Shown one piece after another: positions 13,974-43,315 of a stretch of 64,000 nt of DNA (positions within the stretch are counted from its first letter, which is position 1; each line of letters starts with the position of its first letter). Where the stretch lies: the IMG/VR virus record IMGVR_UViG_3300025413_000008. One strand, written 5' to 3'. This DNA comes from a virus. Its lineage: Duplodnaviria; Heunggongvirae; Uroviricota; Caudoviricetes. The translations under genes and the position numbers were made by a program. The notes under the pieces are model-generated. The model saw nothing but the letters and a program-made list of their open reading frames with translations, was not told where the DNA came from and searched no databases.

Positions 13974-14852
13974 TTATTTATCAGAACGATGTTTCATTCC
14001 ATTGGAACTAAATGGCGGATTACCTTTTGTGTTCTGCCACAAAGCACGATTACTTAATATTTCTACCCAGCAGTTTCTTTGTGGCTTGTTAAGATTCCAA
14101 AAATCAAATTCAATATGGCTTGAGATTGGACGACAATATAATGTTCTTTCACTTGGAATGATCATTTCTTGCGCTGTAGTTCGCATTTTTTTGCGTTCTG
14201 TGTTGGTTCTCATAACATTAAGTTGCGGATGATCAACATAAACTTGACACATGCCATTTACCATTGCTGTCGGATTATCAGCCTTCATAACAATAATTTC
14301 TGCTTGAGCCATTCTGGCTTCGCTGCTAATTCTACTCAGAGTTTCAGATTCATCATCAGGATTGCGTTGATATCCTGCCCAAGGTAACCATACTCCATGA
14401 TTGGTTCTTGCTACGGTCTCATTTTGATCAATTTTTCTGCAAACATAATGATATTCACCATCTTTTTTGCAAGCCTCTAAAAGAAACAAGTTATCGCGAT
14501 CATAGATAATGGTATTGCCAGTCAACTCGTTTTCAATTGATCTTTTGGCTGCATAGACGGCATTATCTTGGAGAAGAGCATCTGAAATTTTTATACCATC
14601 AGGGCTGCGTTCTTTTTTGGTTTTGGTAATTTCTTTTTCGTCATCCTGAATCATCAGACTGGCGCTCAAAATCGCAACACCGCTACTATTGAATCCTTCT
14701 TTATATCCAGTAACTTCGTCACAAAATAAAAGTCTTTCAAGACCGTCCTTTTCATATACCTCAAATCCAATTTGAGGCACGTAATTTCTGTCACGGTTTT
14801 TTACACCGACCCACCCTTTTCCATCAAAATATTTTGCGATAATAACACACAC
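13974..14852 (-). CDS. Ntn-hydrolase-like protein (C45/NRDE-like), Cys2 nucleophile candidate
   Basis: GTG start giving MC; KNRDR, EGFNSSGVAI and VARTNHG motifs. Confidence 0.6.
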   Translation of the reverse strand: MCVIIAKYFDGKGWVGVKNRDRNYVPQIGFEVYEKDGLERLLFCDEVTGYKEGFNSSGVAILSASLMIQDDEKEITKTKKERSPDGIKISDALLQDNAVYAAKRSIENELTGNTIIYDRDNLFLLEACKKDGEYHYVCRKIDQNETVARTNHGVWLPWAGYQRNPDDESETLSRISSEARMAQAEIIVMKADNPTAMVNGMCQVYVDHPQLNVMRTNTERKKMRTTAQEMIIPSERTLYCRPISSHIEFDFWNLNKPQRNCWVEILSNRALWQNTKGNPPFSSNGMKHRSDK

Positions 14853-15406: not shown

Positions 15407-15446
15407 ATAACTCTTTCATGTTATGGACTATTTATCAGAGACTTAA

Positions 15447-16159: not shown

Positions 16160-16191
16160 AGTAACATTATTTATACTATGTTTTCATTTTT
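16146..16191 (-). promoter_or_regulatory. 18-bp perfect inverted repeat containing the late promoter TATAAATA and the spanin start codon
   Basis: Arms 16146-16163 (aaaaatgaaaacatagta) and 16174-16191 (tactatgttttcattttt), 10-nt loop. Confidence 0.85.
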
Positions 16192-24429: not shown

Positions 24430-24465
24430 TTACTCTATTATACTAAGTATAATAGAGTAAGTCAA
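24430..24465 (-). promoter_or_regulatory. Sigma70 promoter TTGACT-17-TATAAT embedded in a perfect 31-bp palindrome
   Basis: Arms 24430-24444 and 24446-24460 are exact reverse complements. Confidence 0.85.
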
Positions 24466-26609
24466 CGTGTTTCTTTCATCATGTTAGGATCATTTGGAGA
24501 AAAGGAGCCACGGTTTCCGACTGCGGATTTAACCTGATTCGGATTAAAAACTACCCAAACTTCACCGGACTTTGCATTGCTGTTGTTTGGAATGATTTCA
24601 TTGATAATAGCACCATCAAAGCCAAGCTTCTGTAAGGTTTTTACAAAGTGATCACCTTCTGGTCCGTCAAACAGTTCCCAGCGTTCAAACTCATCAACAT
24701 AATAATATATTGACCTCAAGTCAATACCATTGTCTTTAAATCCTTGCACGGTTTCTTCGTTATCTAACATATGTGAAAGATTGTTATCTCTTAGATCAAT
24801 GGGATTCTGTACTGAAAGATATACAGGCAAGATTCGTCCACTTGGCTTATATTCACCGGGGTAATCTGGTTTCTCAATGAACGATTCAGCAAACATTGGA
24901 TCAACCGCAAAGAAGGAACCATGACGTTCTACTTCAAATGCCATACCCAATGCACTTGCAAAGCCTGTGCCATGAGTGTTGAACGTGTCAAAGTCTTTAG
25001 TAGTAGCATGATAGAATGTCATTGGCTTATGACCATCCCATGCATGAGTGTGCTTTAGCCAATCGTCCATTCTTTTTTGGCGATGCTGTTCATCATAGCC
25101 GGGAAACAGTTCTTCTTGTTCCTCTTCTGCTAAGAATGACTGCCATTCGTTCATCAGGCTTTCGGCAATCTTACCGTCTGCTCTAGCTTGGGGAGGGATG
25201 CCTGCTCTGGAAGTCTTGAAGCCAAATGCCTTAGCGTTCTTCTTGATCGCATCTGGCTTGACATCTATTGTTAACGCCGTGCACCATCGTGGGTCATTCT
25301 TTTCTTTTGCTGATGGGATGTATCCTGATGCTTCGTCAATATAAGGTAAACGAACATTTTTATAGCGATCAGGATCATGCGGCTTAACTTCTTGTGTCTT
25401 CTTAGGCTTTGGTTCTCTCCAACCACGTTCCCATGCTGCCGCACCTTTTCTTGCCGCAAGATTAACGTCTTGTCCTCTTGCTCGCGCTGAACGGACAAAA
25501 TGGTCAATCACTTGCTGCTTGGTGGTGTAGGCTTCGTCAAGTTGTTCTTCTTGCATTTCATAGCGTTTCATGATTTCATCTGGAACATTATCATCCCATC
25601 CAACATAATAATTATCACTAATTTTATCTATCGCAGCGTCAAGACGATTTCTATAGTCGTATGGTATACCCAGTTCTTCTGCACCACTGCCGTGAATGGC
25701 CTCAGTGGCATCCCACCAGTAAGTATCACCGCTGTAATAGAGTCCACGAAGATGTTTGTGTTGTGATTTTTTAGTTAGATTATACAGAGCACGTGGTGTA
25801 GGGTTTTTCCAATGTTTTAACGAGCTTTCTTCATTGATTATTGCATCAAACTGGTGCTTCAATTCTTCAGCAAGAGTGTCTTCTTGCTCGGCAATTTCCT
25901 CTTCAATGCTTAACTTACTGCTGCGAAGTTTATCACGTAAGTTATATAGTGCATCAATGCCCTTTTGTGATCTAACTGCTTTATATGCAAGATTTTCTGG
26001 TGAGAATTCTCCGCCCTTAGATAATCCTGCCTGACGATAACGCTTGATCATATGCAACACATTATCCAGCCGCCCTAAGTCTTTTGTTTTTAAAGTAAGG
26101 TCAACCAAATCTGCTAGTTTTTGATATTTTGCTTTGGTTGCTGTCTGATCAAAGTTTGCTCTGCGTTTTACTGGATGCTTAATCCAGCGATTATTTAAAA
26201 TACTATATTCACCAAGTGACACTACAGGCTCGTTGCTGTCTTGCACATATACTTCTACTGGAATGCCATGGACAGTAATATTATGAGAGTCATTATAAAT
26301 TGTCTTTTTGGCTTTGAATAATTCCTGATAGACTTCATTGTCAGGAAACCGCGACATATCCACAACTATGTGTAAATCAAGATCGCTATGTTTTGTATAA
26401 GAATATGCAGCATTTGAGCCAGAAATGGTTACGTCTTTTACATTAACATCACTGATTCCAAGTTCTGACATGAAATCGTCTGCAATACTTAATAGACTAT
26501 CTTTAACTTCTGGATCAAGGGTTTCGTCTATCCAAAGGTTGGGGTTAAGTTTGTCGTGAAACTTAACTGCGTCTGAAAGTTTAAATGAATGAAGTTCTTT
26601 AATGTCCAT
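24462..26609 (-). CDS. Multidomain late protein: N-terminal Pol-beta-type nucleotidyltransferase plus C-terminal ADP-ribosyltransferase-like (ART-PolyVal-type) domain
   Basis: SGSN...SDLDLH motif; FYHAT...GSFFA...ILPVYLS...GFDG...VVFNPNQVKS; Glu-rich linkers. Confidence 0.75.
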   Translation of the reverse strand: MDIKELHSFKLSDAVKFHDKLNPNLWIDETLDPEVKDSLLSIADDFMSELGISDVNVKDVTISGSNAAYSYTKHSDLDLHIVVDMSRFPDNEVYQELFKAKKTIYNDSHNITVHGIPVEVYVQDSNEPVVSLGEYSILNNRWIKHPVKRRANFDQTATKAKYQKLADLVDLTLKTKDLGRLDNVLHMIKRYRQAGLSKGGEFSPENLAYKAVRSQKGIDALYNLRDKLRSSKLSIEEEIAEQEDTLAEELKHQFDAIINEESSLKHWKNPTPRALYNLTKKSQHKHLRGLYYSGDTYWWDATEAIHGSGAEELGIPYDYRNRLDAAIDKISDNYYVGWDDNVPDEIMKRYEMQEEQLDEAYTTKQQVIDHFVRSARARGQDVNLAARKGAAAWERGWREPKPKKTQEVKPHDPDRYKNVRLPYIDEASGYIPSAKEKNDPRWCTALTIDVKPDAIKKNAKAFGFKTSRAGIPPQARADGKIAESLMNEWQSFLAEEEQEELFPGYDEQHRQKRMDDWLKHTHAWDGHKPMTFYHATTKDFDTFNTHGTGFASALGMAFEVERHGSFFAVDPMFAESFIEKPDYPGEYKPSGRILPVYLSVQNPIDLRDNNLSHMLDNEETVQGFKDNGIDLRSIYYYVDEFERWELFDGPEGDHFVKTLQKLGFDGAIINEIIPNNSNAKSGEVWVVFNPNQVKSAVGNRGSFSPNDPNMMKETR

Positions 26610-26620
26610 TCATATATTTA

Positions 26621-27403
26621 TCAAGAATGTGTTGGGTTAAGATTATGAGCAGGTTGATAGCAGTTAATTATTTCCCAACGTCCATCATGGTGTTCAACTA
26701 ATGCAGTCATTGATTCTACCCAGTCACCGTCATTCATATAAACAACGCCGTTGATGTTTTTAATTTCGGCAGTATGTATATGACCACAAATTACTCCATC
26801 ATATCCTTTGCGTTTAGCATATTTGGAAATATTGTCTTCAAAGTGATACATGAAGTCCATCGCGCGTTTTACACGATGCTTTAGATATTTGCTTAAGGAC
26901 CAGTAACCAAATCCCATTTTGTGTCTGAGCCAGTTGTATTTTGTATTGATAGCAAGCACAAAATCATATGCACCATCACCAAGAAAACTGATCCATTTGT
27001 TTACGCGAGTGATGCCATCAAACAAATCGCCATGAACTACAAGATAATGTTTACCGTCTTTACCTATATGTTCAATCTGATTGACGATTTCTACATTTCC
27101 AAATGCCAAATTAAATGCCAAATACGGGCGGAGGAATTCATCATGGTTACCCAACACGTATACAACTCTGGTGCCGCGCTTGGCATGTCCGAGAATGCGT
27201 CTGATCACATTAGTATGAGTCTGTTTCCAACGAAACTTATTCTTTTGAATTTTCCACCCATCAATAATGTCTCCGACCAGATAGAGGGTTTCGCAAGAGT
27301 TATTTTTCAAAAAACTATCAAGCTGTTCAGCTTTACAATCTTTTGTTCCGAGATGAATGTCTGAAATGCATATCGTTCTGTATGTTTTTTGTGTTTTTGT
27401 CAT
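26621..27403 (-). CDS. Calcineurin-like metallophosphoesterase, LpxH-like (UDP-2,3-diacylglucosamine hydrolase family)
   Basis: SDIHLG, VGDIID, GNHD, HGD, GHIH, NDGDW motifs. Confidence 0.85.
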   Translation of the reverse strand: MTKTQKTYRTICISDIHLGTKDCKAEQLDSFLKNNSCETLYLVGDIIDGWKIQKNKFRWKQTHTNVIRRILGHAKRGTRVVYVLGNHDEFLRPYLAFNLAFGNVEIVNQIEHIGKDGKHYLVVHGDLFDGITRVNKWISFLGDGAYDFVLAINTKYNWLRHKMGFGYWSLSKYLKHRVKRAMDFMYHFEDNISKYAKRKGYDGVICGHIHTAEIKNINGVVYMNDGDWVESMTALVEHHDGRWEIINCYQPAHNLNPTHS

Positions 27404-27406
27404 TTA

Positions 27407-27832
27407 TTATGACGATCTTGGAATGTGATGGTCGTTTTCTGATACGGATAGTCGTTTAGCCATATTCTTTTGAATTTTTATGTTTGGTGGCTGTCCAGTT
27501 CCAAGATCAGCATGTGTAAACACGCCATATAACTTGATCGTTGTTGGGTTTCTTCCGGATAATTCATACACGATGGCGATATCAGGTGTAAGATGTGCCT
27601 TCACCGCTTTTTGAAGATATTGTTTATAGATTCCATTACCAGTAAATGGTTTATCATTCGTGCCATACTGTGCAAGAGGATTTGCCTCTTTGAATCGCAT
27701 AAACTCTTGAATTTTTTGTAGAATGTTTGGTGTATCCTTCTGGGCACTAACCACAGAAGGAATCCACATAGAACCTTCTACAAATACTACGGAGTTATTT
27801 TGGGGTGGGTTAGAATTTGATTTTTTAGCCAT
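27407..27832 (-). CDS. RelE/YafQ-like mRNA interferase
   Basis: DKPFTGNG...KAHLTPDIAIVYEL...GVFTHADL parallels YafQ DHPL..W..H..PD..LIY...GTHSDL. Confidence 0.65.
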   Translation of the reverse strand: MAKKSNSNPPQNNSVVFVEGSMWIPSVVSAQKDTPNILQKIQEFMRFKEANPLAQYGTNDKPFTGNGIYKQYLQKAVKAHLTPDIAIVYELSGRNPTTIKLYGVFTHADLGTGQPPNIKIQKNMAKRLSVSENDHHIPRSS

Positions 27833-28016
27833 TAATCTTAACAGCTTCTTCCAAACGAGCCATCATTTCGTCTCCGGTCATTGGCTTGCTCCAAGGACCA
27901 TTTGCAGACTTGATGATTGCTACCACATCGTCCGTGCGGAGACCAGTATCGTTACTAGCATCAATGGCTTCAAAAAGAGCCTGTTCGCTGGGTTGGGTTA
28001 CTTCATTGATACGCAT
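27825..28016 (-). CDS. 63-aa acidic protein, putative antitoxin or capsid-targeted peptide
   Basis: 8-bp overlap with the toxin-like gene; GATAAATA at 28025-28032 and TTGACA at 28077-28082; starts MRINE. Confidence 0.65.
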   Translation of the reverse strand: MRINEVTQPSEQALFEAIDASNDTGLRTDDVVAIIKSANGPWSKPMTGDEMMARLEEAVKING

Positions 28017-28196
28017 GATATTATTATTTATCCTTCAGATCGTGTTATCAAACGGATATAACGTGCCTATTCTTATTGTCAAGAAAAAATAGTGGTTTTT
28101 TATTTGAAGATCATCCAATCCAACCCACCGTTGGAATCAAATCGGTCTGGTGCCGCCCCAACCTTCATGAATCATATTATGTTTCCTATATAAAAT

Positions 28197-28360
28197 GGCC
28201 CGTTCTGTTGACGGGTGGGCCAGACCCCGGAAATCATGCTGCTAGAGCAATATCCATGGTTGAATTATCATTTGCAGATACTTCTATTTAGTCTATAATG
28301 CGACTAACCAATCAGTCTAGGCGTTCCTATTCCGTGACAATCGATCCTATATTCAGGCCC
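28197..28360 (-). ncRNA. ssrA: Two-piece tmRNA, coding piece; tag ORF 28234-28275 encodes ANDNSTMDIALAA*
   Basis: 5' GGGCCTG pairs with acceptor CAGGTCC-A-CCA including G3-U; ANDN...LAA tag; 3' hairpin GGCCC-ACCCGTCAACAGAAC-GGGCC typical of alphaproteobacterial tmRNA. The 3' end is approximate. Confidence 0.92.
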
Positions 28361-28372
28361 ATCATAAAGAAA

Positions 28373-28558
28373 CTAAAACATTCCGCCTTTTCGGCGTTCT
28401 TTTCTGCACCATGCAGAATATGATAAAATTTTATCCTTATTCTTTTTCTTGGCACAGTATGCCTTATACTCTTTGTCTGTTTCAACGGTAGGAAGTTTCT
28501 TTCTTCCTCCCCTATAAAACTGTCTTTTACCAGACCATGGATTAGAATATATTGTCAT
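28373..28558 (-). CDS. 61-aa Lys/Arg-rich protein encoded inside the tmRNA intervening segment
   Basis: SD AAGGA immediately after the CCA end; ORF fills most of the 208-nt spacer. Confidence 0.65.
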   Translation of the reverse strand: MTIYSNPWSGKRQFYRGGRKKLPTVETDKEYKAYCAKKKNKDKILSYSAWCRKERRKGGMF

Positions 28559-28568
28559 AGTTTCCTTA

Positions 28569-28633
28569 TGGTGGACCTGTCGGGTACCGCCCCCGAGTCT
28601 TGTCTACCTTTATTGATAGCCATCATCAACTAA
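28569..28633 (-). ncRNA. ssrA: Two-piece tmRNA, acceptor piece
   Basis: T-arm TCGGG-GGCGGTA-CCCGA then CAGGTCC-A-CCA; GACAA pairs with TTGTC and GTTGATG pairs with CGTCAAC of the coding piece; TATAAATA at 28639-28646. The 5' end is inferred. Confidence 0.92.
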
Positions 28634-28637
28634 TGAC

Positions 28638-29786
28638 CTATTTATAATTCAAATCGTTGCTCTTGTCAAGAGTTTTTCCAACGTACTCATGAGAAAAACA
28701 TACTCTTTTAATATGTTTGTCCTTGTGGTTCTTTTCCTTGACGGCGCGGTTGGTTATATAATCTTTTCTACCCTTACCGTTCTTTGACGTTCCTCTCCAC
28801 CGTGGGGAAGAGTTTCTGTATTCACCCAATCGTGGATGCGCAGTTTTAGAAAAAAACCTACAACCTCTTGCTAAGAAGATTTCACCAATAGCATCACTTA
28901 AACGGGTCCCAAACCCAAGACCCTGATATTCCGGAAGAATTACTGTTCGGTGTCCTCTCCATGCATTCTTGAAGTTGCCATTTGGGAATGGAAGAGCGGC
29001 AGCAAATCCTACTATTTCACCATCCCAAATAGCTAACCAGCATTGTGCAGTTCTATTAAGGTTCCCGTCGAGATAGTGATGGTGGCGAAAGATAGGCCAG
29101 ATTTCGGTTGAACAAGGTATGATTTCCAGTTTGATTTCGGGTCTTGGCCGAAGAGACCCCCTTCCGGTCATTTGACCGGTCATAGTATCATATACCCAAT
29201 CGGGCTGTAACCATTCAATCACATCATAATGGCATGTTGCAAGAACAATGTTCTTTAGGTTATGTTTGTCAACATATCTACGAATTGCAACAGAACACGA
29301 TTTAGCTACATTCCTGTCAATAACAGATGTGAACTCATCAAAGACCATACCTGATACCAATGATCTTGCGAGATTGGCGCGAAACTGTTCTCCATTTGAA
29401 AGAACATGATATGGCCTGAGCCAAGATGGAATGGTGTTTAATCCCACAGCAGACAGTCGTTCTGCAGCTTGATCTGCCGATTCAAAGTGTGAGCAGATTG
29501 CTTTAGTTTCATCCCATTCAGGCTGTTCAGTAGAACCAAACGATTTCAACAGAGATGACTTACCTGATCCAGATGGACCAACAATCAACCCGATACCATA
29601 ATCTTCCGGAATACTTGGAACATTTGGAACAGTAAATGTGGTAGTCCCGTTGAACTCATAGTCAAACATAGATGATACTGCTTTAGTGATATCATCTTGA
29701 GATACAGATACCGATATATCTCTACTCGGTATCTTATCGTTCTCAAACTCAAATAGAGATGCTATACTATCGTGCATATTATTCAT
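28638..29786 (-). CDS. ABC-type ATPase fused to a GNAT acetyltransferase
   Basis: GPSGSGKS, LSNGEQFR, VFDEFTS; RTVILPEYQGLGFG. Confidence 0.85.
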   Translation of the reverse strand: MNNMHDSIASLFEFENDKIPSRDISVSVSQDDITKAVSSMFDYEFNGTTTFTVPNVPSIPEDYGIGLIVGPSGSGKSSLLKSFGSTEQPEWDETKAICSHFESADQAAERLSAVGLNTIPSWLRPYHVLSNGEQFRANLARSLVSGMVFDEFTSVIDRNVAKSCSVAIRRYVDKHNLKNIVLATCHYDVIEWLQPDWVYDTMTGQMTGRGSLRPRPEIKLEIIPCSTEIWPIFRHHHYLDGNLNRTAQCWLAIWDGEIVGFAAALPFPNGNFKNAWRGHRTVILPEYQGLGFGTRLSDAIGEIFLARGCRFFSKTAHPRLGEYRNSSPRWRGTSKNGKGRKDYITNRAVKEKNHKDKHIKRVCFSHEYVGKTLDKSNDLNYK

Positions 29787-36988: not shown

Positions 36989-37332
36989 GACCACCTCAAT
37001 AAAAACCAAGCGACATCGTTCTCATTCCTGATATAGATATAATAAATGCCGATATACCAAGAACCATGTTCAAAATTTTGTTCGCACCATTTCCATATTT
37101 CATGATAATCCTCAGGATCAAGTTCAGAATACCAACCGCCATCTCGTCCTTCTATCCACTGATTCTTGTCAGCTATAATACCAAGATCATCAGTCCATCC
37201 TTCTGGATGTCCCGGATCATAGCGAAATTCTGGTTTAACTTTTTTCACTGGAGGCATTGTCCATTTTGTTTTCAGTTTTACAACTTTAGAGTTTAATCTA
37301 ATCTTTGTAATTTCAAATTTAACACCAGTCAT
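36985..37332 (-). CDS. LRWS-family protein; start MTGV at 37332
   Basis: Ends IRNENDVAWFLLRWS. Confidence 0.75.
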   Translation of the reverse strand: MTGVKFEITKIRLNSKVVKLKTKWTMPPVKKVKPEFRYDPGHPEGWTDDLGIIADKNQWIEGRDGGWYSELDPEDYHEIWKWCEQNFEHGSWYIGIYYIYIRNENDVAWFLLRWS

Positions 37333-37652
37333 GACCACCTCAACAAGAAAAACGTTAAATCTGATTCACGTGAAAAATGGTATTCTCCATTCACATAAGA
37401 TGCGCCAGCTTCCTTTAGGCGATTGCGCAAGTCATCAATAATGTTAATGAGTTTTATATTCGGATGCATCTCGCGCGAACGCTGCCGATCTTCCAGTATG
37501 AATGTTTGAAAATTATAAAATGCTTGCTTATGATTATCATCATCAATTACATATAAATTATTAAGACACCACTTTTCAATGAATGGGATTGCCCACTTAT
37601 CAGCAGGATTAAGATCAATTTTGTGTTTAGCGGACATTATGACAGATTCCAT
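37329..37652 (-). CDS. LRWS-family protein, first gene of the array
   Basis: Ends FSRESDLTFFLLRWS; promoter TTGACT-17-TACGGT at 37677-37705. Confidence 0.75.
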   Translation of the reverse strand: MESVIMSAKHKIDLNPADKWAIPFIEKWCLNNLYVIDDDNHKQAFYNFQTFILEDRQRSREMHPNIKLINIIDDLRNRLKEAGASYVNGEYHFSRESDLTFFLLRWS

Positions 37653-38784: not shown

Positions 38785-38830
38785 CTTTAATTCACTCCGA
38801 TGTTCTATTTATCTTGTTTTTATTCATTAT

Positions 38831-43300: not shown

Positions 43301-43315
43301 CTGACTATTTATCAT

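Follow-up and report, generated by a model that had tools for sequence, protein, structure and literature searches.

A stretch of 64,000 nt from a tailed-phage genome (Caudoviricetes; IMG/VR record IMGVR_UViG_3300025413_000008), referred to below as the window, carries a locus that may best be regarded as two things: a transfer-messenger RNA (tmRNA) gene, and a translationally coupled cassette, with promoters of its own, that encodes an acidic protein of 63 amino acids (aa) and a basic protein of 141 aa. We found that the 141-aa protein has the predicted fold of the RelE/YafQ toxins, and its model and conserved residues indicate that it is very probably an active YafQ/RelE-type endoribonuclease (RNase); mRNA-cleaving enzymes of this type are known as toxins of bacterial toxin-antitoxin (TA) systems. 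By sequence homology, the 63-aa protein corresponds to a leader that other phages have joined to the N-terminus of their RNase. Our confidence in the fold and in the pairing is high. The explanation that we favour, with roughly even confidence, is that the pair consists of a YafQ-fold mRNA-cleaving RNase and its detached leader or inhibitor, and that it is probably an effector delivered with the capsid or used early for host shutoff. The window comes from a contig of about 279 kb from freshwater metagenomes, and its relatives are contigs of 100-350 kb, the single cultured one being the Ralstonia jumbo phage RsoM2USA.

Searches with the 141-aa protein returned 77 close homologues, all of them metagenomic, a few of which are named YafQ in their JGI records. 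Pfam and NCBIfam, searched at E up to 1, and PADLOC gave no match to the protein itself, PHROGs gave only weak ones, and PF15738 was touched by two of 35 homologues at E about 0.1. An AlphaFold2 model, built with 35 homologues in the alignment, reached a predicted local distance difference test (pLDDT) value of 83, and its best Foldseek matches were YoeB/ParE and E. coli YafQ (E 1e-4 to 7e-4, probability 1.0). Structural alignment with VIA-align gave Z 11.4 and a root-mean-square deviation (rmsd) of 2.0 with YafQ chain 4ml0_B (89/90 residues aligned), and Z 11.3-11.5 and rmsd 1.8-2.1 over 86-90 residues, at 12-24% identity, with E. coli YafQ and the H. pylori YafQ-like toxins. In an exhaustive search of 48,161 chains, toxins of the RelE/ParE superfamily alone filled the top 25 places (Z 6-11.3), and thereafter Z did not exceed 5.2. 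Specifically, residues 14-112 of the model correspond to residues 3-92, the whole of YafQ (Z 11.3-11.4, rmsd 2.0-2.1), so that the fold of YafQ from the E. coli DinJ-YafQ pair, like that of H. pylori HP0892/HP0894, is matched over the whole domain; residues 1-13 are disordered, and an additional helix, conserved across the family, spans residues 118-133. Sequence and profile searches of the PDB gave matches to eL20 alone, which were dismissed as chance. The YafQ-like motifs that the original prediction had read in the frame at 27407-27832 thus proved real at the level of the fold, in the model, the Foldseek matches and the structural alignments alike.

Catalysis by YafQ involves H50/H63, D67 and H87 (PMC4652777). 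In the 141-aa protein, hhalign placed H80 on YafQ H63 and D84 on YafQ D67, and H107 lies at the position of YafQ H87 within the range of the structural alignment. Among 147 cluster representatives of the family, K48, D60, Y89, H107 and G111 are invariant, D84 is present in 94% and H80 in 84%; Q121 is also listed in the conserved set. Like YafQ, the window protein is basic, and its gene overlaps that of a small acidic partner encoded upstream; it also has probable equivalents of His63, Asp67 and His87. Unlike YafQ, it has no significant match to the Pfam YafQ_toxin family, has a disordered N-terminal tail and the conserved extra C-terminal helix, and is phage-borne, its family being often fused to the partner or to polyvalent proteins. 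From the fold and these residues we infer RNase activity that would, as in YafQ, depend on the ribosome.

The 63-aa protein is also conserved, with a mean column identity of 63% over 10 phages; it opens with M-[KR]-[IL]-x-E in 10/10 phages examined and contains the invariant motifs NDTG...T.D.V and G.W..P. A small open reading frame (ORF) of this kind abuts or overlaps, on the upstream side, every free-standing RNase gene examined except that of L037, in which a short leader is fused to the RNase instead; it is likewise upstream in RsoM2USA, whose RNase copy is 38% identical. The overlap is 8 nt in the window (ATGGCTAA) and 8 or 17 nt among the relatives; a +1 frameshift joining both ORFs was rejected, because the RNase has its own ATG, GGC-UAA makes an unfavourable slip site and relatives differ in how long the overlap is. 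In at least eight clusters (P0144, P0140, P0231, P0121, P0100, P0187, P0115 and P0143), hmmsearch detected the small protein fused in frame to the N-terminus of the RNase (E 5e-18 to 9e-7), and an independently built model of one fused form (pLDDT 83, predicted template modelling score 0.73) has a two-helix N-terminal module followed by the same YafQ-like fold with the same structural matches. The small "antitoxin" is homologous to the fused leader. Residues 19-31 of the 63-aa protein, D-x-x-N-D-T-G-x-x-T-x-D-(L/V), are invariant, lie between two helices and resemble an EF-hand calcium loop plus one residue, with no match to a Pfam EF-hand. In one relative (L042:5373-6004) the RNase is 38% and the small partner 65% identical to those of the window, and the neighbouring genes are 70-90% identical, a pattern suggesting that the RNase cassette turns over, or is replaced, rapidly.

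Prediction of the 63-aa/141-aa complex gave a score of 0.57, against 0.02 for the best of three controls. Of 80 solved complexes, 58 attained the mark used, as did two of 110 mismatched pairs, and scores of 0.60 or less comprise just seven of the 80 solved complexes together with both passing mismatches; our own alignments were fed to the prediction, so that these benchmark counts hold roughly. The runs shared at least 76% of their contacts, with a pLDDT of at least 69 for the partner, and resemblance to solved TA complexes may contribute to the score. The prediction lends weak support to binding of the RNase by the 63-aa protein.

These features could also describe an ordinary type II TA pair, a labile antitoxin and a YafQ-like toxin acting in the infected cell with no capsid delivery, and used for superinfection exclusion, phage competition, anti-defence or timed host shutoff. 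The layout is the classic one, with an acidic gene upstream of, and overlapping, a basic RelE-fold gene; the two genes co-occur strictly, the predicted complex points the same way, homologues are entered in some JGI records as "YafQ of YafQ-DinJ", and a sigma70-like early promoter lies upstream. However, the partner is unlike DinJ (hhalign probability 0.7%) and has no recognisable DNA-binding domain: it gave no meaningful match in Pfam, NCBIfam, PHROGs or PADLOC and none to a DNA-binding family, and in the fused form its module is two helices only. Moreover, many phages have the supposed antitoxin and the toxin in one chain, and the former is missing where the RNase sits in polyvalent proteins; the family, which has no PADLOC match, was seen on phage and metagenomic contigs only and often takes the form of multi-domain effectors. 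We therefore take a plain TA pair to be a possible but rather unlikely explanation, and prefer that of an effector with a detached leader, with which the wider family also agrees.

That family was collected by searching a profile against 1.84 billion cluster representatives at E up to 1e-3, and comprises 313 clusters at 50% identity, found in these searches on phage or metagenomic contigs only. Half of the best 147 representatives have N-terminal extensions, and the shorter leaders often close with G.W.[LIV][LV]E right before the RNase domain. The extended members start with M[RK]xx[ED][FILVM] in 41 of 71 cases, against two of 76 members without an extension; among the minus-strand ORFs of the window, three of 84 start in this way. 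In addition, the RNase domain occurs within polyvalent proteins of 370-1650 aa, in company with nucleotidyltransferase (NTase), ART-PolyVal and amidoligase domains; for example, L038-L040 and L043 encode 1475- and 1526-aa proteins that carry it as their C-terminal domain. In the 1475-aa protein of L039 (P0094), the first 470 residues are homologous to the 715-aa NTase/ART-PolyVal protein of the window (35% identity, E 9e-76), and P0250 consists of a leader, the RNase and ART-PolyVal. Further fusions join the RNase to DUF6934, to Amidoligase_2 plus NTase (1644 and 1650 aa), and to GNAT, NUDIX and GH19 lysozyme-like domains. The polyvalent proteins at L039:6107-10534 and L043:5963-10543 have an HExxH motif, Amidoligase_2 and several short W-x-V-x-D-x-x-T-G repeat domains ahead of the RNase domain. 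Judged by these domain architectures, the behaviour of the family is that of a mobile effector module, which may appear in a pair, behind a fused leader, behind shorter leaders or built into polyvalent proteins.

Iyer et al. (2017; PMC5512222) described RNase domains of the RelE-type (BECR) fold as frequent in polyvalent proteins, which are probably packaged and injected. Like their PBECR modules, the window family has a BECR-fold RNase that stands alone or in multi-domain phage proteins, and ART, NTase, GNAT and peptidase-like partner domains are common to both. Unlike them, it has no Pfam match, the PBECR models included, and has a dedicated small partner or leader; nor does it fit the PBECR pattern, which has its His on the N-terminal helix and its Ser/Thr on strand 4 (PMC5512222), its set of K48, D60, H80, D84, Y89 and H107 being YafQ-like.

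The coordinates of the locus are collected in Table 1. The order that the original prediction had given, a tmRNA followed by a 63-aa acidic ORF and an overlapping 141-aa ORF, is present on the minus strand, and so are the TTGACA and GATAAATA boxes that it had noted ahead of the pair. The minus strand, which carries nearly all long ORFs of the window, also holds the terminator of the tmRNA. The observed locus is well beyond chance, because both ORFs are conserved and in view of the Rfam E-values given below.

Table 1. Features in and around the tmRNA gene and the RNase cassette of the window
Feature	Coordinates	Strand	Remarks
tmRNA promoter	28639..28669	-	TTGACA 28669..28664, 17-nt spacer, TATAAATA 28646..28639; sequence reading
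tmRNA acceptor piece	28569..28630	-	T-arm, acceptor-stem 3' strand, encoded CCA at 28569; RF04321 and RF01849 alignments
Intervening segment of permuted tmRNA precursor	28361..28568	-	208 nt; insert in Rfam alignments
tmRNA coding piece	28194..28360	-	GGGCCUG 5' acceptor strand, tag, terminator hairpin 28215..28199
tmRNA tag ORF	28275..28237	-	ANDNSTMDIALAA; UGA 28236..28234
Window-specific spacer, tmRNA terminator to pair promoter	28084..28193	-	about 110 nt; not in L007-L009
Pair promoter region	28025..28082	-	TTGACA 28082..28077, TATATC 28060..28055, late-type box GATAAATA 28032..28025
63-aa acidic partner protein	27825..28016	-	isoelectric point (pI) 4.4; N-terminus MRINEV
141-aa basic protein	27407..27832	-	pI 9.7; YafQ/RelE-fold domain at residues 14-112, C-terminal helix at 118-133
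Calcineurin-like metallophosphoesterase gene	26621..27403	-	start 3 nt past RNase stop codon
715-aa polyvalent protein	24462..26609	-	NTase-like N-terminal domain, ART-PolyVal C-terminal; GATAAATA upstream
382-aa ABC-type ATPase head and GNAT acetyltransferase fusion	28638..29786	-	phrog_11143, E 6e-119

In the pair promoter, TTGACA and TATATC are separated by a 16-nt spacer, and GATAAATA lies 8 nt ahead of the ATG of the 63-aa ORF; TTGACA, TATA(A/T)C and GATAAATA boxes are found at the same place in L007-L009. The sequence [GT]ATAAATA, which looks like a T4-late-type promoter box, occurs eight times on the coding strand of the window (13975-13982, 15429-15436, 16168-16175, 26615-26622, 28025-28032, 28639-28646, 38806-38813 and 43306-43313), and GATAAATA twice on the opposite strand. 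Six of the eight boxes lie 5-24 nt upstream of gene starts, including those of the pair, the polyvalent gene and a paralogue with a start resembling a capsid targeting sequence (CTS), and a seventh is the -10 box of the tmRNA promoter. There is no overall enrichment of GATAAATA in the window (8 matches, 5.1 expected); the strand and position bias is the one indicative feature and is suggestive. At the pair and the polyvalent gene, transcription from the late-type box would yield nearly leaderless mRNAs.

In the window, as in L007, L008, L019, L023, L024, L032 and L042, the polyvalent gene lies just downstream of the pair, directly after it in L007 and L008 and one gene past it in the window; the metallophosphoesterase gene that intervenes in the window directly follows the RNase gene in some relatives only. 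Upstream of the tmRNA, the gene for the 382-aa ATPase-GNAT protein has a weak PADLOC match, mad3 (3.7e-9), and in the relatives it is conserved beside a DNA methyltransferase gene.

The tmRNA of the window is a permuted, two-piece form. Rfam cmscan matched alpha_tmRNA (RF01849) at 28673..28194 with 78.7 bits (cut-off 50, E 1e-19) and tmRNA_permuted (RF04321) at 28630..28234 with 74.3 bits (cut-off 47), both aligned across the full length of the model, with the acceptor piece preceding the coding piece. ARAGORN called no tmRNA in the window; this negative result was set aside because of the Rfam matches, and the 208-nt insert is probably the reason for it. As read from the alignment and the sequence, the acceptor stem pairs 5'-GGGCCUG with CAGGUCC-ACCA and includes G3:U70, the pair recognised by alanyl-tRNA synthetase. 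The tag ANDNSTMDIALAA is followed by UGA; tags in relatives include ANDNDFAFALAA and ANDNNVDLALAA among others, and in the four relatives with the same RNA they end in LAA or AA. A hairpin and T-run terminator lies at 28215..28190, and the promoter layout (TTGACA, a 17-nt spacer and TATAAATA) is repeated in L007, L009 and L014. Taken together, the gene is functional-looking by sequence. Rfam detected no riboswitch at the tmRNA. SmpB (PF01668) was not found in RsoM2USA (complete), G003 (73% complete) or three other relatives, and we assume that the phage tmRNA would depend on SmpB of the host.

The intervening segment is about 120-190 nt longer than in four relatives and contains a 61-aa, very basic ORF (28558..28373, minus strand, pI 10.2) that begins 11 nt past the CCA end, with AAGGA ahead of it. 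Shuffled sequences are predicted to fold just as well as the spacer at 28084..28193 (z = +0.97); within the spacer, GGGGCGGCACCAGAC is similar to the T-arm of the tmRNA, GGGGGCGGTACCCGAC, and may represent a degenerate partial duplication. Alpha-type permuted ssrA genes after an early-type promoter have been described in the OM43 phage Melnitz and the Pelagibacter phage Mosig (PMC9004378), which, like the window phage, are large aquatic myovirus-like phages; unlike theirs, the tmRNA of the window has an unusually long, ORF-bearing intervening segment, no detected riboswitch and an adjoining RNase pair. RsoM2USA also has a permuted tmRNA (MG752970.1, 331649-331960; L017:1473-1784), with 92 bits for beta_tmRNA and 96.7 bits for tmRNA_permuted, in a region annotated as a hypothetical protein in the GenBank record; the paper on this phage makes no mention of a tmRNA. 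The Xanthomonas phage XacN1 (AP018399.1) has identical permuted copies at 37231-37530 and 356026-356325 (123 bits each), presumably in its terminal repeats. A blastn search of the locus and the tmRNAs against phage records found nothing beyond short conserved tRNA-like stretches.

RelE-type cleavage leaves non-stop complexes, which tmRNA rescues. The original prediction had accordingly read the locus as a possible stall-and-rescue module, in which the phage may cut host mRNA on ribosomes and recycle these with its own tmRNA; in the strict form of this idea, the module is a dedicated one and the phage tmRNA is the obligate, co-selected partner of the RNase. Proximity speaks for this: the tmRNA is on the same strand as the pair and lies upstream of it by 70-220 nt in the window, L007, L008, L009, G001, G008 and G015, and by 0.6-2.5 kb in L014/G010, G004, G011, G012 and G014. 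A permuted tmRNA is also present somewhere in each reasonably complete relative that carries the RNase (RsoM2USA, G003, G009 and G006); a tmRNA of any kind is encoded in just 2.3% of phage genomes (PMC9004378). However, those close loci whose flanks are readable, L042 included, share one backbone with polyvalent and MoxR-like AAA genes downstream, and several members have metallophosphoesterase or RimK-like genes inserted between the tmRNA and the pair. Because the close loci share this one syntenic backbone, the adjacency counts as about one evolutionary event; it is specific to a lineage and does not mark a conserved module. Off the backbone, the distance is 17 kb in G006, 45 kb in G009, 155 kb in G003 and about 250 kb in RsoM2USA, where the distant tmRNA is of the beta-type permuted form, and no tmRNA was found on the contigs G002, G005, G007 and G013, which are fragments. 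XacN1 has its two tmRNA copies and no RNase homologue, and Atu_ph07 has neither. In addition, the tmRNA and the pair are separate transcription units, with their own promoters and a terminator between them.

Conserved linkage of ssrA with RelE-like genes was thus mostly absent among the relatives, the tmRNA being within 2.7 kb of the pair in one backbone only and 17-250 kb away elsewhere. What survives of the original interpretation is the RelE/YafQ fold with its His/Asp/His residues and the acidic partner, paired or fused; the dedicated link to the tmRNA does not, and we consider an obligate module improbable. By analogy with RelE, it is plausible that a ribosomal A-site RNase would generate substrates for the tmRNA, so that the two may interact functionally. 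Away from the tmRNA, the pair is often found amid genes for translation or proteolysis: ClpS, ClpP and an L12-like gene in L010 (1-3302 and 8550-8945), a class-I tRNA-synthetase fragment in L012 (5538-6383) and a tRNA gene cluster in RsoM2USA; in L015, tRNA genes lie on both sides.

Under the explanation that we favour, the 63-aa protein would be a detached leader or pro-domain that binds the RNase and restrains it in the producing cell, and its T4-CTS-like N-terminus (M-[KR]-I-x-E) may bring the RNase into the prohead. Once delivered, or once expressed early from the TTGACA promoter, the RNase would cut mRNA, like YafQ most likely at the ribosomal A site, resulting in shutdown of host translation; the adjoining tmRNA could then help to clear the resulting non-stop ribosomes. 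The model for such delivery is T4, in which the internal proteins and Alt have an N-terminal CTS (PMC3012670) that is cut off by the gp21 prohead protease. In a way that recalls T4, unrelated effector domains in these phages share a short leader, M-[KR]-x-x-E-[FILV], two relatives encode a gp21-type prohead protease (PF03420; 103 bits in RsoM2USA and 89 bits in G003), and the window has late-type boxes like TATAAATA. Unlike in T4, a separate 63-aa protein, rather than the enzyme, would bear the tag, and packaging is putative.

Several observations weigh against this explanation. For the enzyme, hhalign against E. coli YafQ gave a probability of 13% over 30 columns, and searches of Pfam, NCBIfam and PADLOC revealed no named family to which it belongs by sequence; a variable Lys stands where YafQ has H50, no counterpart of Phe91 is apparent in a motif-level comparison (HADLGTG versus HAALFG in YafQ), and some close relatives have R, T or K in place of H80. 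For the partner, the complex prediction is weak in its support and reports no interface, and the small protein is not found near the fused polyvalent forms; since these forms do without it, it is not universally required, and hhalign of the 63-aa protein against the polyvalent protein P0094 returned nothing. For delivery, the resemblance of MRINE to what we take to be the T4 CTS covers five residues only, the window RNase itself is leaderless, and the virion proteomics of RsoM2USA, which covered about 10 gel bands only and is uninformative either way, did not include ORF114/115. Capsid delivery is argued from analogy, and we regard its chances as about even.

A more elaborate version, which we hold to be doubtful, is a split pro-toxin, in which the 63-aa protein would be both a capsid-address adaptor and an inhibitor, and the RNase an injected A-site enzyme that halts host translation within seconds of infection. 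The phage tmRNA, made early, would recycle the ribosomes; with host SmpB and Clp proteases, it would clear them and mark the nascent chains of the host for degradation, so that ribosomes and amino acids would go to the phage.

It is very unlikely that the pair is instead a regulator like RegB of T4, in which the RNase would trim early phage or selected host transcripts and the small protein would be a factor for specificity or timing. The phage endoribonuclease RegB is similar in size and has a broadly BECR/RelE-like fold (PMC5512222), it acts on mRNA in the context of translation, and the pair has early-type as well as late-type promoter boxes. However, the structural similarity is weak (Z 3.3 and rmsd 3.9 with 2hx6, against Z 11.3 with YafQ), and RegB as the closest match was rejected on this score. 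Fusion to polyvalent effectors, unknown for RegB, would not be expected of a housekeeping regulator. Finally, we know of no partner gene coupled to regB. Least probable of all is a catalytically inert RelE-fold protein, such as a factor binding RNA or the ribosome or a ParE-like inhibitor of another target, since, although the superfamily includes non-nuclease ParE gyrase poisons that are also among the structural matches, and although the H50 counterpart and H80 vary as noted above, the residues conserved through 147 divergent representatives (H107, D60, K48 and Y89 in all, D84 in nearly all) form an active-site-like pattern, and the best structural matches are the mRNA-cleaving YafQ, YoeB and RelE, with ParE proteins lower (Z 7.4-8.8).

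YafQ-type toxins, BECR polyvalent modules and two-piece phage tmRNAs are known; new are this RNase family and its split, fused and polyvalent formats. The permuted tmRNAs of this phage group escape ARAGORN here and lack annotation in RsoM2USA, and the adjacency of tmRNA and RNase genes is a caution against over-reading synteny in giant phages. Beyond this, the locus exposes a large YafQ-like family that has no Pfam model. If the RNase is active, it would provide these phages with a weapon at the level of translation, and would show how a TA-like pair can arise by the splitting of a leader from an effector domain, or the reverse.

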